Numbered from the stretch's first letter, positions 2,661-64,000 are shown. The stretch is DNA of 64,000 bases from Octopus sinensis (GCF_006345805.1 NC_043004.1:35216001-35280000), one strand, 5' to 3'. Numbers and translations: made by a program. The notes: generated by a model not told the origin, from the sequence alone.

Positions 2661-4473
2661 CACTAGGCAATGCCAGATATCTCTGTTAGTACTTTAATAT
2701 AAATATCAAATGAATCTACAGACTACAACTATTCCTCATCCTGTTATGTATTCTAGTCATCTCAAAACTGCATTATATTTACATCCAAGCCAACAATTCT
2801 TTTTCTCTTAATTGCTCTTCAGCCACCCCAGTGATATTTCACAGTCAGCACTTTGCGATCCATCATAGGTCAGTTATTTGCCTCACATATTTATATCAAT
2901 GGAGTCACCTGTGTGAGTTTCAGCATTGCTGCTTGACCAACAAGAAATAACACCCAAAAATCTCTAAGATCACATCTCATTATCTACATTCTGAGAAAAG
3001 AAACTCAGAAGCACAAAGTCTAGAATATTATTATGCAGCAGAAGTCTGCACAACCATGACTGATATATGACTGATCAACAACAGCAATTTTAGCCATTAC
3101 CTTTAACACCTGATTGCTCTCAGCTCTTGTCTTGCACCGTTTCTTTCTAACTTCACCAGCAGCCTTACCTTGATCACCTAGGTAATAAGTCATATCCCAC
3201 ACTTTACACATCAACACATTTCATACATTGTGTTTGTGGAATAGCTTAAAGACCAGCATATCTTATAACATCAAAATATTATATTAAAGATTGGAGAGAT
3301 CATAGAAATGACTGTACCAAGGTAATGGATGCTAAATATAAGTCAGAAATCCATCTAAGCAGTTCAAGGCCTTAATGTTATAGGTGTTCTTACTTCTGTA
3401 GAGGAAACAGAGAAACCAAATAAAAAATCTTTCAACAAATATGCAGAGGAGGCTTAGAAAATGAATATAAAAATTATTATTTGGAAATGGAAAAGCTCTG
3501 GTAAAGGACATAGCAATGTCAATTTGTGTGGAAGAAGGAATGGGAATGCTAATGTTACAGGACTGTTTCATTTATATAGACATACCTGCAGCGTCTTGGA
3601 AAATGGTAGCAAAAGCTGTGAGAGAGCAGAATTCTTGGCCTCAAACTAAATAATACTTTTTTTTTCTTTTATTTGTTTCAGTCATTTGACTGTGGCCATG
3701 ATGGAGCACTGCCTTTAGTCAAGGGGATTGAACCCAGAACCATGTGGTTCGTAAGCAAGCTGCTTACCACAGAGCCACTCCTGCACCTATAATTTGAATA
3801 TGTTACTGCAACATATTGAGAATTGTAAAAATCTCATAACTAAAGAAAATATATTTTAAGTTATGAGAACAATGAATGTTTGTCACTTAAAATTTGTATC
3901 TTTCTCAGGAGGAACATCACAGCAATGCTGTCAGGAATATTGCTGTATTCTTTCATCCATTTTTTACACCAGTTTTTCATGCTAGACTGGGTTAGACAAA
4001 TATGCATCATTGATTTACTGGTCTCAAATCTTGGCACAAGGCCAGCAATTTTGGGAGAGGAGGTAAGTCATTTACATTGACCCAGTACTCACTGGTATTC
4101 CCTCTCTCTCTTTCAGAGAGGCACTGAGCAGCTATACGCACACATACACACACGGCAGTAACTTCCACCTACCGAATTCAATCACAAAGCTCCGGTCGGC
4201 TCGGGGCTATAGTGGAAGACACCTACCCAAAGTGCCACGCAGTGGGACTGAACCTGAAACCATGTAGCTAGGAAGCAAGCTCCCTAACCACACAGCCATG
4301 CCCGATTGATTTTAATAATCCCAAAAGGATGAAAGATTGGGTGGAATTTGAACTCAAAGCATAAAGATAGGTTAAATACCACTAAGCACCTTGCCCACTA
4401 TGCTAACGATTCACTTACCTCACTGCTTTTGATGCCATATATATATATTTATATATATATATATATATATATA

Positions 4474-14285: not shown

Positions 14286-14292
14286 AGACTAC

Positions 14293-14574
14293 AGTTCCAT
14301 ATTTAAGAGAAGAGGAATTATTTACATTTGATGGATATTTGTCCTCATGGTGTAGTGGTTAAGAGCACAGGTTACTAAACCCAAGATTCTGAGTTCGATT
14401 CCAGGCAGTGACCTGAATAATAATAATAATAATAACGTTGAAAAATACCTTAGGAATGAGAACCCAAGTTCAAAACTTCCCCAAGTCACCTGATGAAGGC
14501 TGAAGGGTATATCAGCCGAAATGTGTTAACAACAAACGAGATGAGGACAAATATCAGTCAAATGTAAATAATGT
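14293..14574 (+). mobile_element. Family A unit: inverted tail fragment + tRNA-like head + (AAT)n + hammerhead
   Basis: 14293-14348 is the reverse complement of the family's 3' tail; 14347-14574 matches the Penelope terminal repeat at 58091-58436. Confidence 0.85.
14484..14527 (+). ncRNA. Minimal type-I hammerhead ribozyme (family A), small deletion in stem III
   Basis: cac-CTGATGA-a-GGCTG aagggtatat CAGCC-GAAA-t-gtgtt. Confidence 0.65.
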
Positions 14575-37480: not shown

Positions 37481-37688
37481 GTGGGCATATGGCGTAGTGG
37501 TTAAGAGTATGGGCTACTAACCCCAAGATTCTGAGTTCGATTCCAGCAAAATATACCTTAGGAATGAAAAACTAGGTTTGAAATTTCCCCAAGACACCTG
37601 ATGAAGGCTGGAGGGTATATCAGCCGAAACATTGTGTTAACAACAAACAAGATGAGAACAAAATCCGTCAAAATGTAAATAATGTACT
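37481..37688 (+). mobile_element. Family A standalone unit (tRNA-like head + hammerhead) inserted in an S3 repeat
   Basis: gggcatatggcgtagtggttaagag...ctactaa...gagttcgattcc...accttaggaatg...HHR...aatgtaaataatgta; S3 sequence on both sides. Confidence 0.85.
37592..37638 (+). ncRNA. Minimal type-I hammerhead (family A)
   Basis: gacac-CTGATGA-a-GGCTG gagggtatat CAGCC-GAAAC-att-gtgtt; the inferred consensus GAAACGTT has a CpG-type change here. Confidence 0.75.
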
Positions 37689-38720
37689 TAGACAAAAAAA
37701 AATCTAACCCATGCCAGCTTGGAAAGTGGACGTTAAACGATGATAATGATGAGATTTCACTATAAAAACTTGGATCAACCCAACACTATGGTGGAATCAA
37801 TTTTTCCAAAGGTGCTGTAGTTTGTGATCAAACCCAGAACACACTATTCTTAAACATAAAGTCATATCCTAGTCACATTATCTTGATTCTAGCCAAAACT
37901 GGTGCTTTTTATTTATTTATTATTATTATTTTTTTTTTTGGCATCCAAAGCAGAAATCCAGAAGATGTCATAGATTAGTCAATGACATCTCAGCTAGTTT
38001 TCAGATGAATATCTGAAGAATTCTAAAGAATTAGAAAATTCCTGAAGGATATTTGAGTTCACTAACTTTAACGTCTAAATAACTTTATTTTCTCCAAAGC
38101 TAAACAAAACAAAAAATTACATAGGTTTATATTCATGCATCTACATAAATTTATTATGCATATAGTTTGGCAAAATTAATTCTAGAGGAAATTTTCCAAA
38201 CTATTAACCCCCTTATTTAGAGCTTCTATTAACAAATTTCAACTGGTTTGATCTTTAATTATCGTTAGGTATCACCTTTGAAGTTAATAGTCCCAAAGTT
38301 TTAATTATTCTAGAAACATCTTCCAGAAACTTATAATCATTTATTTTATTGTTTTAAATTTAATTTTCTGAGACAAATTCAGTTGGATTTTATTTTGCTT
38401 TAGTTTTTGAACTCAGATATGTAACCAGAGCAACTTCTTTCACAGTTGGATACTTTGCTGTTTTTTCTTTTGCTATGTTACATCCAATTTCCCCTGCTGC
38501 AATGGTTAGCAACATTTTTTTTATACATCTCTACAGTTTCACAGTCTTAGAATAATCATATTAAAAATAATCTTTCTAACACTGACCGTTCAGCTGTGAA
38601 ATAGAAGAAAAACCTGTGGACAGTGTGTTCACTAGACTAAAGTGTGTGGGCAGAGTTTCCTCTTCATAAGAAGTACAATACACTGACTAAATACTACTAC
38701 TACTAATAATAATAATAATA

Positions 38721-50695: not shown

Positions 50696-51550
50696 TTGAA
50701 AACGAATGAAACTGAAAAATAGGTGGGTAAAGAAAAGAATGCATGGTCAATTTCATAGGGATGTTGAAAAAAGATGGCTGTGGATGACTAAAAGTGATTT
50801 AAAACCAGAAATGGAGACTCTAATGTGTCTGCCCAAGAGCAAGCAAGCACTAAAAACAAACTACATAAAATACAGAATAGACAACACAGCAGAACGTGAT
50901 AAGAGCAGAATCTGTGGACAAAACGGTGAAACCGTATGGCATATTACCAGTCAATGTACACCACTAGCCCAGAAGGAATATAAGAGAGGCCATGACAATA
51001 TAGCAAGGCTTGTCCATTGGATACTTTGCAACAAGTATGGACTTGACAGAGCAAAACATTGGTACAACCACAAACCTAAAGGCATTGTCAAAAATAGAAA
51101 TGCAAAGATCCTATGGGATTTTATGATTCAGTGCGACCATGAGATAGAGAATAGGAAGCCAGACATAGTCTTAATTGAGGAAGAAAACAAACTATGCTGG
51201 ATCACAGATATAGCATGCCCAGCTGACAAGGTATGCGATAAGGAAGAAAGAAAAGTCGAGAGATATGACAGGTTAGCTTGGGAAGTTAAGCATTTGTGGT
51301 TGATGAAAAAGGTAGCAGTAGTACCAATAATTGTTGGAGCCCTGGAAACAGTGAACAAAAATCTCGAGAGGTATGTGGAACAAATAGGGGCTGCAATAAG
51401 GGTGGAGCACTTGCAGAGAACAGCACTGCTTGGAACCGCCCGAATACTCTGGAAGGTCCTTGAAAAATAAGATGTGTTAACTTAGTTCACTGGTAGTCAA
51501 CAGCTGACACCATAGTACATCTCCAGCGTTAGAAGCTGTGCAAAGGCAAT
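50696..51550 (+). mobile_element. 5'-truncated R4/Dong-like element; open 254-aa C-terminal ORF (50706-51470) with zinc knuckle and RLE endonuclease
   Basis: SRICGQNGETVWHITSQC (CCHC-like), RGHD, ILWDF, RKPDIV...DIACP, PIIVGAL, ALLGTARIL; flanked by (GAT)n. Confidence 0.9.
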
Positions 51551-57260: not shown

Positions 57261-57660
57261 AGGTGGCGAGCTGGCAGAAATGTTAGCATGCCGGGCGAAA
57301 TGTGTAACCGTATTTCATCTGCCGTTACGTTCTCAGTTCAAATTCTGCCGAGGTCGACTTTGCTTTTCATCCTTTCAGGGTCGATAAATTAAGTACCAGT
57401 TATGCACTGGGGTCGATGTAATCGACTTAATCCGTTTGTCTGTCCTTGCTTGTCCTCTCTGTGTTTAACCCCTTGTGGGTAGTAAAGAAATAGAAATAGA
57501 TATTTCGTCCGCCGTTACGTTCTAAGTTCAAATTCTGCCAAGGTTGACTTTGCCTTTCATCCTTTGGGTGTCGATAAACTAAGTACCAGTTGCATACTGG
57601 GGTTGATCTAATGAACTGTCCCCCTCCCCAAAATTTTCGGGTCTTTTACCTAGAGTAGAA
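57261..57660 (+). mobile_element. Tandem SINE family S2 copies
   Basis: Full copy 57261-57492 followed by a 5'-truncated copy with the alternative tail. Confidence 0.85.
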
Positions 57661-58168
57661 GAGAATGAAAGAGCCTTTATGTGGTTGTGCAACATGCCAG
57701 AAATGGTAGTCAAATTTTCTGAAACTATACCCATCCATAGATTTTGAAAATAAAACAGCTCATTGGCTAATCTTGCTGGATGAATTTTCTGAAAATAAGA
57801 TGGAATGCTCACAACTAGAATAATTGGCCTGACCTGGTGCTAATATTCCAGTAGATTATTGGCACATAAGAGTTGTGAGATCTTCTATAGCTAATTCTGC
57901 TGACAAGTTCCAGATTTGTTGCCTCTCCCAAAATCTTGAATTCAGATCTCGCAGGAGTATATTTTACTTTCCATCCCCAGTTGACAAAGGAATGAATAAT
58001 AAGGGTTTCAGATTTTGGCACAAGGCCAGCAATTTCAAGGAGGATTTAAGTTGATTATATCAATCCCAGCATTCAACTGGTACTTATTCAGTTCTATGTT
58101 TAAGAGATAAAAAATTATGTACATTTATTTACAATTGACGGATATTTGTCCTCATCTTGTTTGTTGTT

Positions 58169-58216
58169 AACACAACATTTCGGCTGATATACTCTCCAGC
58201 CTTCATCAGGTGTCTT
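58169..58216 (-). ncRNA. Minimal type-I hammerhead in the Penelope terminal repeat (family A)
   Basis: Minus strand gacac-CTGATGA-a-GGCTG gagagtatat CAGCC-GAAAT-GTT-gtgtt. Confidence 0.8.
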
Positions 58217-58361
58217 GGTGAAATTTTGAACCTGGGTTCTCATTCCTAAGGTATTTTTCGATGTTGTTGTTGTTGTTATATTATTATTATTATTATCATT
58301 ATTATTATTATTACTATCATTATTATTATTATTATTATTATTATTGTTGTTGTTGTTGTTC

Positions 58362-58435
58362 AGATCACTGCCTGGAATCAAACTCAGAATCTTGGGGTTA
58401 GTAGCCTATGCTCTTAACCACTATACCAGATGCCC
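58362..58435 (-). promoter_or_regulatory. tRNA-like segment with Pol III A/B boxes inside the Penelope terminal repeat
   Basis: Family consensus tggcgtagtgg (A box), anticodon-like loop ctactaa, gagttcgattcc (B box); acceptor stem imperfect, so not called as a tRNA gene. Confidence 0.7.
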
Positions 58436-58464
58436 GTGGGCAATTATAGAGTGAATTTTAGGGC

Positions 58465-59690
58465 TTATAATTCCAATATTCTCCTATCCTTCCTTAATAC
58501 CGATTCCATATGCTGTTCATATCTACACTTGGTCTGCTTAGGAGGTTGTTGTGTCCTAGCATATGGGCTGCTTCTTTTAATTTTCATATTTTCTTGTGGT
58601 GTTCTCTGTCTATTATTTTAACTTCATCCCACAGGGGGAAGTGGTCTTCATTTTTCCATACATGATCAGCTATACCTGATTTATCAATATCTCCCCGTGT
58701 CACAGCTTTGTGATGTTCCTCTACCCTTATTTTGAGGGGGCGGCATGTTTTGCCTTTGTATAACCTACTACAGCTGCATGGGATAGAGTACACACAGTTC
58801 TTAGTTATATTCTCTTCTACTGGTGGTTTTATTCGAAGGAGATATTTGCAAAGTGTTGAATTACTTTTGAATACTGTCCTGATGTCATATGGGGCACATA
58901 TCTTTTGTATCTTTTCGGAGAGGCCTTTCACAGAGGGTAGACAGACTGTGGACAGTTTATCGATTTCATCCTCTCTTTTCTTCATAATTGGAGTGGAGAG
59001 TATGCTTTTGGGGTAGTTGTTGCTTAATAGATTGTTACTGAACTTGATCATTTCTTCGTGGTGGGTATCACGATTGTTACTTATATTCATTGCTCGATGT
59101 TTTAGGTGCTAAGCAATCCCTCACTTTACACTGTATGGATGGTGTGCATTGAGGTTGAGGTATCATCCAGTGAAGGTCGGCTTGCGGTATACGGATGTCC
59201 TGAATCCATACCTGGTGCGTGTTATTAATACATCCAGGAATGCTAGCTGTCTTTTTCCTTTTCTGTTGTGAACTATATGGATGGCTTTATTGAGTTCACA
59301 TGATCTAACAGCACTTGGACATCTTCCTGGTGGGGCCAGAGTATGAAGGTGTCATCAGCATATTGTAGCCATAGGGTTGGTTTTAGTGGTGTTGATCCTA
59401 AAGCCAAATTCTCAAAGCATTCCATGTGTATATTGGCTATTACTGGTGATAATGGTGAACCCATAGCTAAACCCTCTTGTTGTCAATATATATCAGTGTC
59501 CATACTGAAGTAGGTAGTTTCTACACAGAAGGTCAACATTTCCATCAAGTTTCTTATTAGTGTACTAGTGAATTCTTTTAGATAGGTATCTGTCACTAGT
59601 TTTTCTTGAATCACCGATAGTGCTTCACCAGTTGGGACTTTGGTGAACAGACTTATCACATCTAGACTCACCATCACGTTGGACTCAGTG
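58465..59690 (-). pseudogene. Penelope/Poseidon-type reverse transcriptase + GIY-YIG endonuclease, with stops and frameshifts
   Basis: VSLDVISLFTKVP, GLAMGSPLSPVIAN, YADDTF, FLDV, VYRKPT, then CVYSIPCSCSRLYKGKT..RVEEH..SGIADH. Confidence 0.92.
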
Positions 59691-59764
59691 GGAGTATCTT
59701 TGGTGTAGTGGTTAAGAGCACAGGCTACTAACCCCAAGATTCCGAGTTCAATTCCAGGCAGTAA

Positions 59765-59795
<31 letters not shown>

Positions 59796-60039
59796 GATTA
59801 ATAATAATAATAACATCGAAAAATACCTTAGGAATGAGAACCCAGGTTCAAAATTTCCCCAAGACACTTGATGAAGGCTGGAGCATATTCGCCATCTACT
59901 TCAATTACTGCTTCCCATTTGCTTGGCAGACGGTCAGACTGTCATTTAAAGATGTTTTTTGTTATATATTGTTGTTTTGGTTGAATAAAATTTGTTGTAA
60001 AAACCTGTAATAATAATGCACCAACCCAATATAATATTT

Positions 60040-60256
60040 GTTTCTTTATTGCCCACAGGAGGCTAAACATAGAGGAGACAAACAAGGACAGAGAAAGAGA
60101 TTAAGTTGATTACATCGACCCCAGTGCATAACTGCTACTTATTTAATTGACCCTGAAAGGATGAAAGGCAAAGTCAACCTCGGCGGAATTTGAACTCAGA
60201 ATGTAACTGCAAACAAAATACTGTTAAGTATTTCACCCAGCATGCTAACGATTCTG
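60040..60256 (-). mobile_element. SINE family S2
   Basis: Reverse-complement match. Confidence 0.85.
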
Positions 60257-61628
60257 AACGAATGCTGTCTTTTTTTCACCAGATAAGTACTTCCAATTAG
60301 ATTGTCTTTGCTTATGACATTAAATATATTAACACTATCTTAACAAGTTCAGAAGTTCTTCATTATGTTGTATCTTTGACCAAGATATCCACCTCGACTT
60401 GCTCCAGTTTGCCTGACTGAACCAAACAATGGATGCCGTTCTTATTTCATGGTTGAACAGTTAACAGCAGAAAAGCATCCAGCTGTAAAAACAATTATTC
60501 TAGCAAACAAACCAAACCACACATTTAAATATGGAAAAAATGGATATAAAATTGTATAAATTTAATTTAAAATATTAGCCACGTGAACTCTAAAATAAGT
60601 ACTGATCTCTGGTTGCCATGAAAAATATTTTCATGGTGTTTAGCTAATGAGAAGAATTCAAGTGAAGAGATTGTGAAATAAGAATAATGTATTCAAAGAT
60701 ATTTACATTCATTCGACATTTATTTTCTCTATCTGCCGGCTTCCTCATGCTGGTTTCACAATCATGTACAAAACTCAATATCTGTAACAAACTGAACCAA
60801 GTTCTTAATATAATCCAGTTTTGGTGAAGAGTCTTTGCTACTATACAACAACCTAAAAGCCATTAACAATCATCATCATCATCAGTATAATCCACATATC
60901 TCTCAATTACATCCTGATGCAGCTCAAGCCAAATGCCTGATCTATTTAATTTTACACAGTGGTTGCCTCTCCTATCAGAACTTTATCTTAATGACTGCAA
61001 GGGATCTATTTCCCTCAGAAACGTTAGCATACCTTTCCCTCAGAAACGTTAGCATGCCTTTCATCCTTTCGGGGTTGATAAATTAAGTACCAGTTACGCA
61101 CTGGGGTCGATGTAATTGGCTTAATCCCTTTGTCTGTCCTTGTTTGTCCCCTCTGTGTTTAGCCTCTTGTGGGTAGTAAAGAAATAGGTTTTACTTGATG
61201 GTTTGAAAGTATCACCCAACAAAAATTAACCAAACCTTTAACCATTACACACACAAACTAGTTGGAGTGATATTTATGTTAAATTTCAACAGTTTCACAT
61301 CAATTAATGCAGGAATATTGTAAGCAGGGTAGGAATTCCAGAGGGATCATGTTGAGGGGGAAAATGATTGTGAATAGCAATACTGAATGGGTGGCAAGAG
61401 GATGGGAGTTAAGTGCAAGCGATGAGGTTGGATGAGGATAATAAGCCAGTGTCAGGAGTAGAGGCCGTTGTGGTAGTTGTAGAAGAGGTCGAATAATGAC
61501 AAGACAAGAGGTCTGTTGGAGTAAAGATTGTTTGCCAACATAATATGGCAGTCCTGGTTTAGGACGAATGTTGCTGTAATTTAGCCCCAGGAGACATCAT
61601 CTCTAGCTGGCTATATGACATGATCTGT

Positions 61629-62176
61629 CATCATCATCATTGTCATTTAATGTCCGCTTTCCATGCTGGCATGGGTTGGACAGTTTGACTGAGGACTGGT
61701 GAGCAAGAAGACTGCACCAAGCTCAATCTGATCTGGCAAAGTTTCTACAGCTGGATGCCCTTCCTAATGCCAACCTCTCCGAGAGTGTAGTGGGTGCTTT
61801 TATGTGCCACCGGCACAAGGACCAGTCAGGCAGTTCTGGCAACGACCACGCTCAAAAGGTGTTTTTTATATGCCATCTGCACGGGAGCCAGTCTGACGGC
61901 ACTGGCAATGACCATGCTTGAATGTTGTTTTACATGTGCCAGTAAGGAGATGCTGGCAACAATCACACTCGAATGGTGCTTTTTATGTGCCACCAGCACA
62001 GGAGCCAATCTGTGGCCCTGGCAAAAATCATGCTCGGATGTGCTTTTAACATTCTACTGGTATGAGTACCAATCAGGAAGTACTGCCATCGGCCACATCA
62101 GCGATTTTGATTTGATTTGATTTCAATTGCCTCAATAGGTCTTCGCAAGCAAAGTTTATTGTCCAATGAGTGAGGG
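61629..62176 (-). mobile_element. Family S3 repeat with expanded internal ~50-bp units
   Basis: Several tandem ggtgcttttatgtgccac-type units; GAT tail on the minus strand. Confidence 0.85.
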
Positions 62177-62424
62177 GTGTCCTTATATTTTCAAACAAGG
62201 GATGTCTTCTGGGGCTAAATTACAGCAACATTCATCTTAAACCAGGACTGCCATGATATGTTGGCAAACAACCTTTACTCCAAAGTACTGTTGCTGAATA
62301 TCTCTCATTATGAGATTTACAAATAGTAATTTTCTAATTTATAGATCAGTGACTAGTTGTCACTTTGAAAACTATATATTTCAAACGGGTATTTGGCAGC
62401 GCCACCTGTAGCCAAACAATTATT

Positions 62425-62467
62425 CCGAGCTGATGAAGAGAAATAACCCAGAAATCGTGATACACAG
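62425..62467 (+). ncRNA. Degenerate type-I hammerhead (family B)
   Basis: ccgag-CTGATGA-a-gag aaataa ccc-a-GAAA-tcgtga-ta-cacag; core present, stems mismatched. Confidence 0.55.
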
Positions 62468-62859
62468 ATGTTGTTTTGAGCTGAGTGGGGGTGCTAGATT
62501 CCCTTGTTTGAAAATATAAGGACACAGATCATGACATATAGCCAGCTGGAGATGATGTCTCCTGGGGCTAAATTACAGCAACATTCGTCCTAAACCAGGA
62601 CTGCCATGATATATTGGCAAACAATCTTTACTCCACAGTACTGTTGCTGAATATCTCTCATTATGAGATTTACAAATAGTAATTTTCTAAGAGATCTGTT
62701 GATTGGAAATTTGTGTGTGTTGGTGAGTGACTCCTAACTCATCAACCAGATAGCTTTTTTGGCGGGGATTCAGTCAGGGATGCTTTAGTGTGTAGCAATA
62801 GTACTGTCCTAATTATGTAGTAACAACCAACTAGAGTCATTTAAATCTATTTATACGAT

Positions 62860-63123
62860 CTCGGTCATGGTGCCATGTAACAAACACTAGTGTAATTGCC
62901 ACATACTCATGCTGGTACCAAGTAAAAGAAACCAGTGCCAGTGACACATAAAAAGCACCCGGTAGACTCTGTGAAGTGGTTGCCATTAGGAAGGGCATCC
63001 AGCTGTAGAAACCATGCCAAATCATACAATGGAGCATGGTGCAATCCCCAGCCTTCCCAGCTTCAATCAAACTGTCCAACCCATGCCAACATGGAAGATG
63101 GACGTTAGATGATGATAATGATG
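62860..63123 (+). mobile_element. Family S3 repeat
   Basis: Conserved 3' end and GAT tail. Confidence 0.8.
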
Positions 63124-63831: not shown

Positions 63832-64000
63832 CTTTCTACTCTAGACACAAGGCCCAAAATTTTTAGGGAGGGGACCAGTTGATTAGATTGACTCCAATAT
63901 GCAACTGGTACTTAATTTATTGACCCCAAAAGGATGAAAGGCAAAGTCGACCTTGGCGGAATTTGAACTCAGAATGTAAAGACAGATGAATACCACTAAG
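63832..64000 (-). mobile_element. SINE family S2, running off the window
   Basis: Reverse-complement match. Confidence 0.85.

Follow-up and report, generated by a model that had tools for sequence, protein, structure and literature searches.

A Penelope-like element of Octopus sinensis begins its terminal repeat with a tRNA-like head that may act as an internal Pol III promoter

We describe a Penelope-like element (PLE) of the Penelope/Poseidon type whose terminal repeat begins with a tRNA-like head, followed by an (AAT)n tract, a minimal hammerhead ribozyme and an AT-rich tail. It was found in a stretch of 64,000 nucleotides from Octopus sinensis (GCF_006345805.1, NC_043004.1:35216001-35280000; hereafter the window). 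The head-bearing structure is real and integral to the element, and it is apparently undescribed, with the proviso that an entry in Dfam or Repbase could already record it. We slightly favour the reading that this Poseidon-type PLE uses the captured tRNA-derived head, which probably came from a resident SINE, as an internal Pol III promoter for the whole element.

Organization of the element in the window

On the minus strand of the window, an ORF remnant is followed by a 29-nt spacer, a tRNA-like block, an AAC/AAT tract, a minimal hammerhead and an AT-rich tail (Table 1). An earlier reading of the same DNA from sequence alone (the sequence-only reading) had proposed this order behind an RT/GIY-YIG remnant, with about 30 bp between stop codon and block, and it was confirmed here, as was its claim that an inverted partial repeat beginning in the tRNA block lies at the 5' truncation point: the inverted repeat starts in the A box. 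The 12-nt hairpin at the end of the spacer overlaps the start of the head, and head-to-head junctions of other copies are centred there. No target duplication was found for this main copy, and the folding energies of its parts were not better than those of shuffled sequences. Two additional family members in the window are solo repeats.

Table 1. Features of the PLE family in the window (positions counted from the first nucleotide of the window)
Feature	Position	Strand	Basis or remark
ORF remnant: RT core, thumb and C-terminal GIY-YIG-type endonuclease, Penelope/Poseidon-type	58465..59700	-	Translation, Pfam RVT_1 on sister copies, BLASTP; read 59700-58465, 5'-truncated, several stops and frameshifts, stop codon ends at 58465
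29-nt post-stop spacer, ending in a 12-nt self-complementary hairpin	58431..58464	-	Hairpin at 58442-58431
tRNA/SINE-derived head, 5' end of the terminal repeat	58363..58435	-	Stems broken
A box of the head	58428-58418	-	
Anticodon-like loop CT-ACT-AA of the head	58404-58398	-	
B box of the head	58385-58374	-	
(AAT/AAC)n tract	about 58263..58360	-	Length varies; interrupted by another retroelement in some copies
Conserved linker with ATG (58243-58241)	58215..58262	-	In copies with the repeat upstream of the ORF, the ATG shares the ORF's frame; N-termini of P0003, P0124 and P0149 match
Minimal type I hammerhead	58169..58214	-	Architecture as in the available text of PMC4209133
AT-rich repeat end including the optional 30-40-nt tail	58089..58168	-	Window copy has the long form
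Inverted partial terminal repeat at the 5' truncation point	59701..59888	+	Repeat arms I7 and I8, 87% and 91%; spans A box to inside hammerhead helix II
Second family member: solo repeat, short inverted arm with long tail, then direct arm from A box to short end	14292..14574	+	Flanked by a putative target duplication of at least 8 nt
Third family member: solo repeat beginning at the head, AAT tract deleted	37483..37690	+	

Other repeats lie in the window as well. An unrelated SINE-like repeat occurs several times in both orientations (57275-57660, 60032-60256, 61005-61193 and 63834-63990), and direct and inverted repeats of 60-140 nt with 84-96% identity, probably other SINE/MITE fragments, lie at 61516-61692, 62201-62690 and 62990-63123. 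A stop-free stretch of 256 codons at 50700-51467 (plus strand) resembles the end of a non-LTR retroelement ORF and has no Pfam match.

Identity of the element and its protein

Two stop-free stretches from sister copies match RVT_1 of Pfam above the cut-off, and a C-terminal stretch aligns with a relative from Anolis (P0086; BLASTP, E 8e-18). The GIY-YIG endonuclease (EN) with its CCHH motif is assigned by homology only, the motif being visible in the translation and PF01541 being present on four listed homologues; two C-terminal stretches gave no match in Pfam. When the translations were read by eye, a Zn-finger was absent from the RT-EN linker. Since an extra Zn-finger in this linker is given as a mark of Neptune and Nematis in the available text of PMC8557442, its absence places the element in the Penelope/Poseidon type. 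Among 878 homologues, the best named ones come from arthropods, echinoderms and lizards, and the nearest database proteins (53-71% identical) cluster with the element in a quick-method tree, which contained no Neptune or Nematis rows.

The PLE is about 2.65 kb long and has a single ORF encoding RT and a C-terminal endonuclease. A direct repeat, at least in part, lies upstream in 53 of 70 ORF-start copies, an inverted arm is present in 43 of 73 head-anchored matches, and two 3' ends about 35 nt apart are found (13 long, 14 short and 3 other in 30 unselected copies). In L357 and L080 the ATG of the repeat opens a frame that passes through the hammerhead into the ORF, and the relatives P0003, P0124 and P0149 start with a similar peptide. 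All PLE hallmarks that we tested were found, namely RT, endonuclease, direct and inverted pseudo-LTRs, an optional tail and a hammerhead overlapping the ORF start. The last of these is not new for PLEs, as the same overlap is known in Poseidon_Ac (PMC11167929, available text).

A distant protein query of the genome for other PLE families returned the same family at 30 of 30 loci. All copies seen are decayed, with about 82-88% pairwise identity, and the family may therefore be silent today. It is present in sequencing runs of five organisms, none of the runs listed being recorded as RNA; we found no relatives among viral contigs and no solved structure of a PLE.

The head is integral to the element

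Linkage between the ORF and the head was examined in 42 unselected ORF-end copies, which are the first exact matches on contig C1 in genomic order. The block follows the ORF end behind the identical spacer in every one of them, so that the distance to the GIY-YIG C-terminus, which the sequence-only reading proposed to check, is fixed throughout. An A box is present in 24 of the 30 best-scoring copies, and three of the rest end before or at it. We also followed 73 head-anchored copies, taken as the first head matches with duplicates kept in the count (L304-L307 represent one duplicated insertion, and L219/L220 and L224/L225 are each the two arms of a single insertion). All 73 continue into the B box, 71 into the AAT tract and 60 into the hammerhead or tail. 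Ten of the 13 copies without hammerhead or tail were read, and several of these are broken in the AAT tract by another retroelement.

The resemblance of the head to resident SINE heads might suggest that an independent SINE had inserted by chance behind the window copy alone. We regard this as vanishingly improbable, because the linkage in 42/42 ORF ends refutes a chance insertion, and because no separate SINE joining the same head to another body was found among the 73 head-anchored copies. The block is thus an integral part of the pseudo-LTR, as had been claimed, rather than an independent SINE insertion.

The retroelement that invades the (AAT)n tract, parting head from hammerhead, was seen in L014, L034, L054, L074, L302, L317, L321 and L322. 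It encodes a zf-RVT-like peptide (a weak Pfam match in L302) and resembles an R4/Dong-type element.

The terminal repeat begins with the head

Copy number along the element was estimated with exact, CpG-free 19-mers, the counts of which are lower bounds: 8077 for the hammerhead, 5401 for the head, 1024 for the ORF end and 106 for the ORF start. As reversed controls of the head and hammerhead 19-mers gave 0, the structure in the window is not a product of chance. The counts drop 5-fold within the 65 nt from the head to the ORF end and only 1.5-fold from the hammerhead to the head; solo heads thus stand to ORF ends at about 5:1 and to ORF starts at about 50:1, and most copies are solo repeats beginning at the head. 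The same boundary is seen in individual alignments. For 60 of the 73 head-anchored matches the end falls in the interval from -22 to +31, the stretch from -23 to -61 contains no end at all, and 13 matches continue into the ORF; the spacer is matched over at most 7 nt in 67 of 83 de-duplicated heads; and of 30 unselected hammerhead matches, a single one is linked to an ORF and 14 extend as far as the A box and no further. Contig depth also steps 4-5-fold at the head in two other organisms, although this is a rough measure.

Copies containing the ORF point to the same boundary. The full-length copy L350 runs through head, AAT, hammerhead, tail, ORF and head, and starts at -2. Four of the 70 ORF-start copies stop at the head, and three continue into an upstream unit, indicating that tandem read-through also occurs; the class of ORF-start copies ending in the tail is inflated by a 9-nt duplication absent from the reference. 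Along one unit the parts are head, (AAT)n, ATG, hammerhead, tail, remainder of the ORF, stop, spacer and next head, and the element begins with the head, which is no 3' appendage. In addition, a flipped two-base loop of the hairpin was found in 12 of 47 non-ORF heads and in none of 80 ORF-linked ones; this restriction to non-ORF heads is as expected if cDNA folds back at the end of the RNA. Because the hairpin itself is palindromic, the start can be placed only between -7 and +1.

The abundance of solo repeats raises the question of whether the head is a working Pol III promoter of short RNAs only, in which case the solos would be a SINE mobilised by the Penelope enzyme, and the coding RNA would come from Pol II, through host read-through or an unseen promoter. 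Besides the excess of solo heads over ORF ends and ORF starts, this explanation is favoured by putative target duplications of the solos' own (at least 7 nt in 4 of 14 solos, namely 12, 11, 9 and 8 nt; mismatched pairs reach 7 nt in 24 of 182) and by solos with a flipped loop and no inverted arm (L217 and L313), which suggest that non-ORF copies served as sources; it also avoids the problems of capping and processivity. However, it leaves unexplained why every ORF end examined carries the head, why full-length copies start at the head and why TTTT is scarce along the whole ORF (see below), and we consider it rather unlikely. Absence of an ORF, which is expected of a SINE, applies to the solo copies only, as the ORF-bearing element has the same head.

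Origin of the head

The majority letters of 28 blocks sit on standard tRNA positions without a gap, and the A and B boxes are complete when compared with the Pol III box consensus. The cloverleaf is broken (10/21 stem pairs, hand count on the 28 blocks), and the block thus lacks the paired stems of a functional tRNA gene. An HMM built from 22 tRNA genes of the same genome matches 16 of 30 copies with 4.6-16.8 bits, and the score was reached by 0 of 300 shuffles in the two copies tested. ARAGORN detected no tRNA in the window and none in the 28 blocks, either at default or at -ps95. A tRNA-Ser(ACT) reported in 7 of the 28 blocks under relaxed ARAGORN settings was discounted, since such settings gave more than 100 spurious calls on unrelated loci.

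Comparison with a resident SINE head gave a gap-free alignment over 65 nt with a score of 56.6, versus 46.9 for the best of the 22 tRNA genes and 15.8 for shuffles. The closest sampled tRNA gene is Arg(TCT), within an incomplete sample of 22 distinct genes from six isotypes. The boundary of the repeat coincides with the start of the resident SINE heads, and capture of a SINE head is probably the simplest origin. A group of resident tRNA-headed SINEs with a colinear head (L309, L399, L355, L393, L209, L032 and L048) may be considered a candidate donor lineage.

A tRNA-like block could also act as a processing signal, with RNase P releasing the element from host transcripts by a cut at the head, much as a ribozyme does for R2. 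Such processing could define the 5' end sharply with no need of a promoter and would fit the read-through seen in RNA-seq (see below). However, RNase P needs the acceptor and T stems, in which 7 of 12 pairs are broken here, many copies retain 2-7 nt upstream of +1, and the deficit of TTTT is not predicted, which together make this explanation very improbable.

The hammerhead

The hammerhead consists of a 5-bp helix I, CUGANGA, one extra A, a 5-bp helix II, GAAA and a palindromic 4-nt helix III of the dimer type, which reads AUGU in the window copy versus ACGU in the family; the cut site in the window is predicted after 58174. In the covariance-model check suggested along with the sequence-only reading, Rfam recognised neither the tRNA nor the hammerhead, which is a caveat to the confirmed structure. 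Most variation of the core among 276 copies falls on the free position N7 (98 T and 43 A). According to the available text of PMC4209133, minimal hammerheads require dimers, and cleavage of this one would be expected only as a dimer or with the help of protein.

The N7 variant in 43 of the 276 copies suggests two source lineages, both retaining the catalytic core. Recurrent length variants of the repeat are of 3 and 9 nt, keeping the reading frame.

Transcription of the element and scarcity of TTTT

Two RNA-seq runs of organism B show near-equal numbers of reads in both directions and a depth that rises with copy number; 75-79% of the reads run on into unlike flanks, and no pile-up of starts was observed at the head. 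This signal is read-through from host transcripts and is neutral with respect to a Pol III RNA. No splice-type joint stood out among the RNA-seq joints listed, whose coverage extends to the element outside the 5' part of the ORF.

No TTTT common to more than 8% of copies is present over 2715 nt of the sense strand, which contains 22.8% T. The rate of TTTT is 0.31 per kb versus 2.1 expected from base content, and Phe codons are 115 TTC to 40 TTT (counted on overlapping fragments, in a genome of 36% GC). Three sets of controls were used. In 63 related ORFs the median of observed over expected TTTT is 1.1, with four ORFs, which have no head, devoid of any run; among 33 related units of ORF plus repeat, none is TTTT-free and five are T5-free; and ten Pfam-supported retroelement ORFs of the same genome, which are those with retroelement Pfam matches among 14 other ORFs scanned, contain 23 runs versus 23.8 expected. 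One of the sequences that served as a TTTT control, L400:5435-8587, is an uninterrupted LINE ORF of 1051 codons (AP endonuclease and RT) near a full-length copy.

Dinucleotide shuffles gave P values of 0.01-0.035 for the three longest copies and 0.06-0.66 for the other nine; the three are not independent of one another. Synonymous-codon shuffles gave P of at least 0.05 in all 23 fragments. The TTTT deficit is one evolutionary observation. Scarcity of TTTT alone does not predict a head, because the relatives L126 (one TTTT in 2.6 kb), L143, L147 and L198 are TTTT-poor and have no head.

These data also bear on the possibility that the head is a captured relic devoid of Pol III activity, which merely marks the usual fixed boundary where cDNA folds back, the element being transcribed by Pol II like Penelope. 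Ordinary Penelope elements, for which Pol II promoters are proposed, also have fixed palindromic repeat ends and no tRNA heads (PMC3846280), a point that argues against Pol III transcription of the whole element as well, and characterised PLEs such as Penelope and Chlamys-3 have an internal Pol II promoter with a 5'-UTR intron (PMC8557442, available text). The RNA-seq data, which show no independent transcript, and the fact that sense strands of retroelements are often T-poor also fit a relic. On the other hand, both boxes are intact while half of the stem pairs are broken, the repeat boundary coincides with the start of resident SINE heads, and TTTT is rarer than this T content would lead one to expect, which is not the case in other retroelements of the genome; a relic is hence, in our view, quite unlikely.

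Under the Pol III reading that we slightly favour, Pol III would initiate no more than about 7 nt from the head and would then transcribe the whole ORF and the next repeat, as no terminator would stop it. The RT of the element would then prime inside a tail. There is an in vitro precedent: the RT of the Anolis Poseidon element initiates at the tail, at an internal site of the RNA, and does not depend on hammerhead cleavage (PMC11167929, available text). Priming at the first tail would copy only about 270 nt and yield the abundant SINE-like solos, and priming at the second tail would yield copies that contain ORF sequence and are mostly truncated. On reaching the 5' end of the RNA, the cDNA may often fold back on the small hairpin, giving head-to-head inverted arms.

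Pol III RNA is uncapped, and its translation would be the weakest step of the scheme. The hammerhead falls within the first codons of the ORF; in RNA viruses, cap-independent translation can be set off by ribozyme cleavage (PMC13725137, available text), but in the PLE cleavage would take away the first ATG. The processivity of Pol III has also been argued to be too weak for autonomous elements (PMC10886601, available text). A more extensive scenario, in which an autonomous coding element switched to Pol III by capturing a SINE head, purged TTTT over 2.7 kb, was translated from uncapped RNA whose first codons contain a hammerhead and generated its own SINE-like family from the same transcript, is proposed only tentatively, our confidence in it being a little short of even.

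A possible second case

In the metagenome contig L121 the ORF is followed by a tRNA-like block that has both an A and a B box, then by a short AAT run and by a hammerhead (2816-3030). L121 consists of a 2791-bp tandem unit with about 39% protein identity to the element and forms a separate branch of the tree. Of 43 relatives, no other has a tRNA-like block behind the ORF, and no other is matched by the tRNA HMM (5.1 bits for L121; 0 of 300 shuffles). The unit has two TTTT and no T5, which is the second lowest TTTT among 33 units. L121 is a single contig that was first noticed by inspecting TTTT-poor loci, and its pattern, fitted after the fact, is matched by 11 of 5000 shuffles (about 9% over 43 regions). 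From these sequence features, L121 is somewhat more likely than not to represent a second, independent capture of a head, which would make the strategy a recurrent one among PLEs.

Comparison with known systems

In the sequence-only reading, a tRNA-derived Pol III promoter in the pLTR was a combination not known to be described for an autonomous PLE, and this was sustained by the full-text literature that we searched, in which no PLE with a tRNA-derived head was found; most subscription journals, Dfam, Repbase and supplements lay outside its scope. Two surveys of octopus repeats name Penelope and SINE families without such a link in their available text (PMC13282606 and PMC8967140).

Penelope/Poseidon PLEs, including Poseidon_Ac of Anolis, share with our element the single ORF for RT and C-terminal endonuclease, the direct and inverted pseudo-LTRs, the optional tail and a minimal dimer-type hammerhead over the ORF start, but the available text of their descriptions mentions neither a tRNA-derived head nor a Pol III promoter, the promoters described or proposed for them being of the Pol II type (TATA/Inr, 5'-UTR intron) (PMC11167929, PMC4209133 and PMC8557442). 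TRIMp3 elements (Cassandra, Helenus and Ajax) carry a Pol III promoter derived from a small RNA in their terminal repeats, with conserved boxes and a non-functional tRNA, and SINE capture has been proposed for them; they are, however, non-autonomous LTR elements of 0.3-1.3 kb, whereas here the head belongs to a protein-coding PLE, and their autonomous partners must use Pol II according to their describer (PMC10886601, available text). True LTRs with PBS and PPT and absence of coding sequence define TRIMp3, while the present element has pseudo-LTRs with variable ends and encodes RT.

In the SINE-like SM-alpha repeat of schistosomes, which is short and occurs dispersed or in tandem, a Pol III promoter likewise precedes a type I hammerhead, but the repeat is non-coding, its hammerhead is canonical and active, and it is not described in the available text as the terminal repeat of an autonomous PLE (PMC6765202 and PMC8490949). 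Animal non-LTR retrozymes are short hammerhead units related to PLE repeats and probably moved by PLE enzymes; they differ in forming tandem arrays and circular RNA, and no tRNA head is mentioned in the available text (PMC7229834 and bioRxiv 10.64898/2026.07.22.740005), whereas the solos described here are dispersed monomers or head-to-head pairs. R2 offers the closest functional analogy for translation, being an autonomous element whose protein is believed to be made from an RNA that lacks a cap, does not come from Pol II and has a ribozyme at its 5' end, but it is co-transcribed by Pol I from rDNA, has an HDV-like ribozyme and lacks a promoter of its own (PMC6765202, available text).

Significance

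The prevailing view is that autonomous retrotransposons need Pol II and that Pol III heads are confined to short non-coding parasites. If our favoured reading is true, a coding element on a tRNA-type promoter would break the Pol II rule and provide a test of cap-independent translation of Pol III RNA. Under the weaker reading there would still be a family of SINE-like repeats, many thousands in number, that a Penelope enzyme has mobilised, and a route from a PLE terminal repeat to a SINE, which is a plausible origin of repeats combining a tRNA-like part with a hammerhead, such as SM-alpha. Moreover, the copies map the probable 5' end of the RNA and the putative priming sites of a PLE, a group whose cycle is poorly known.
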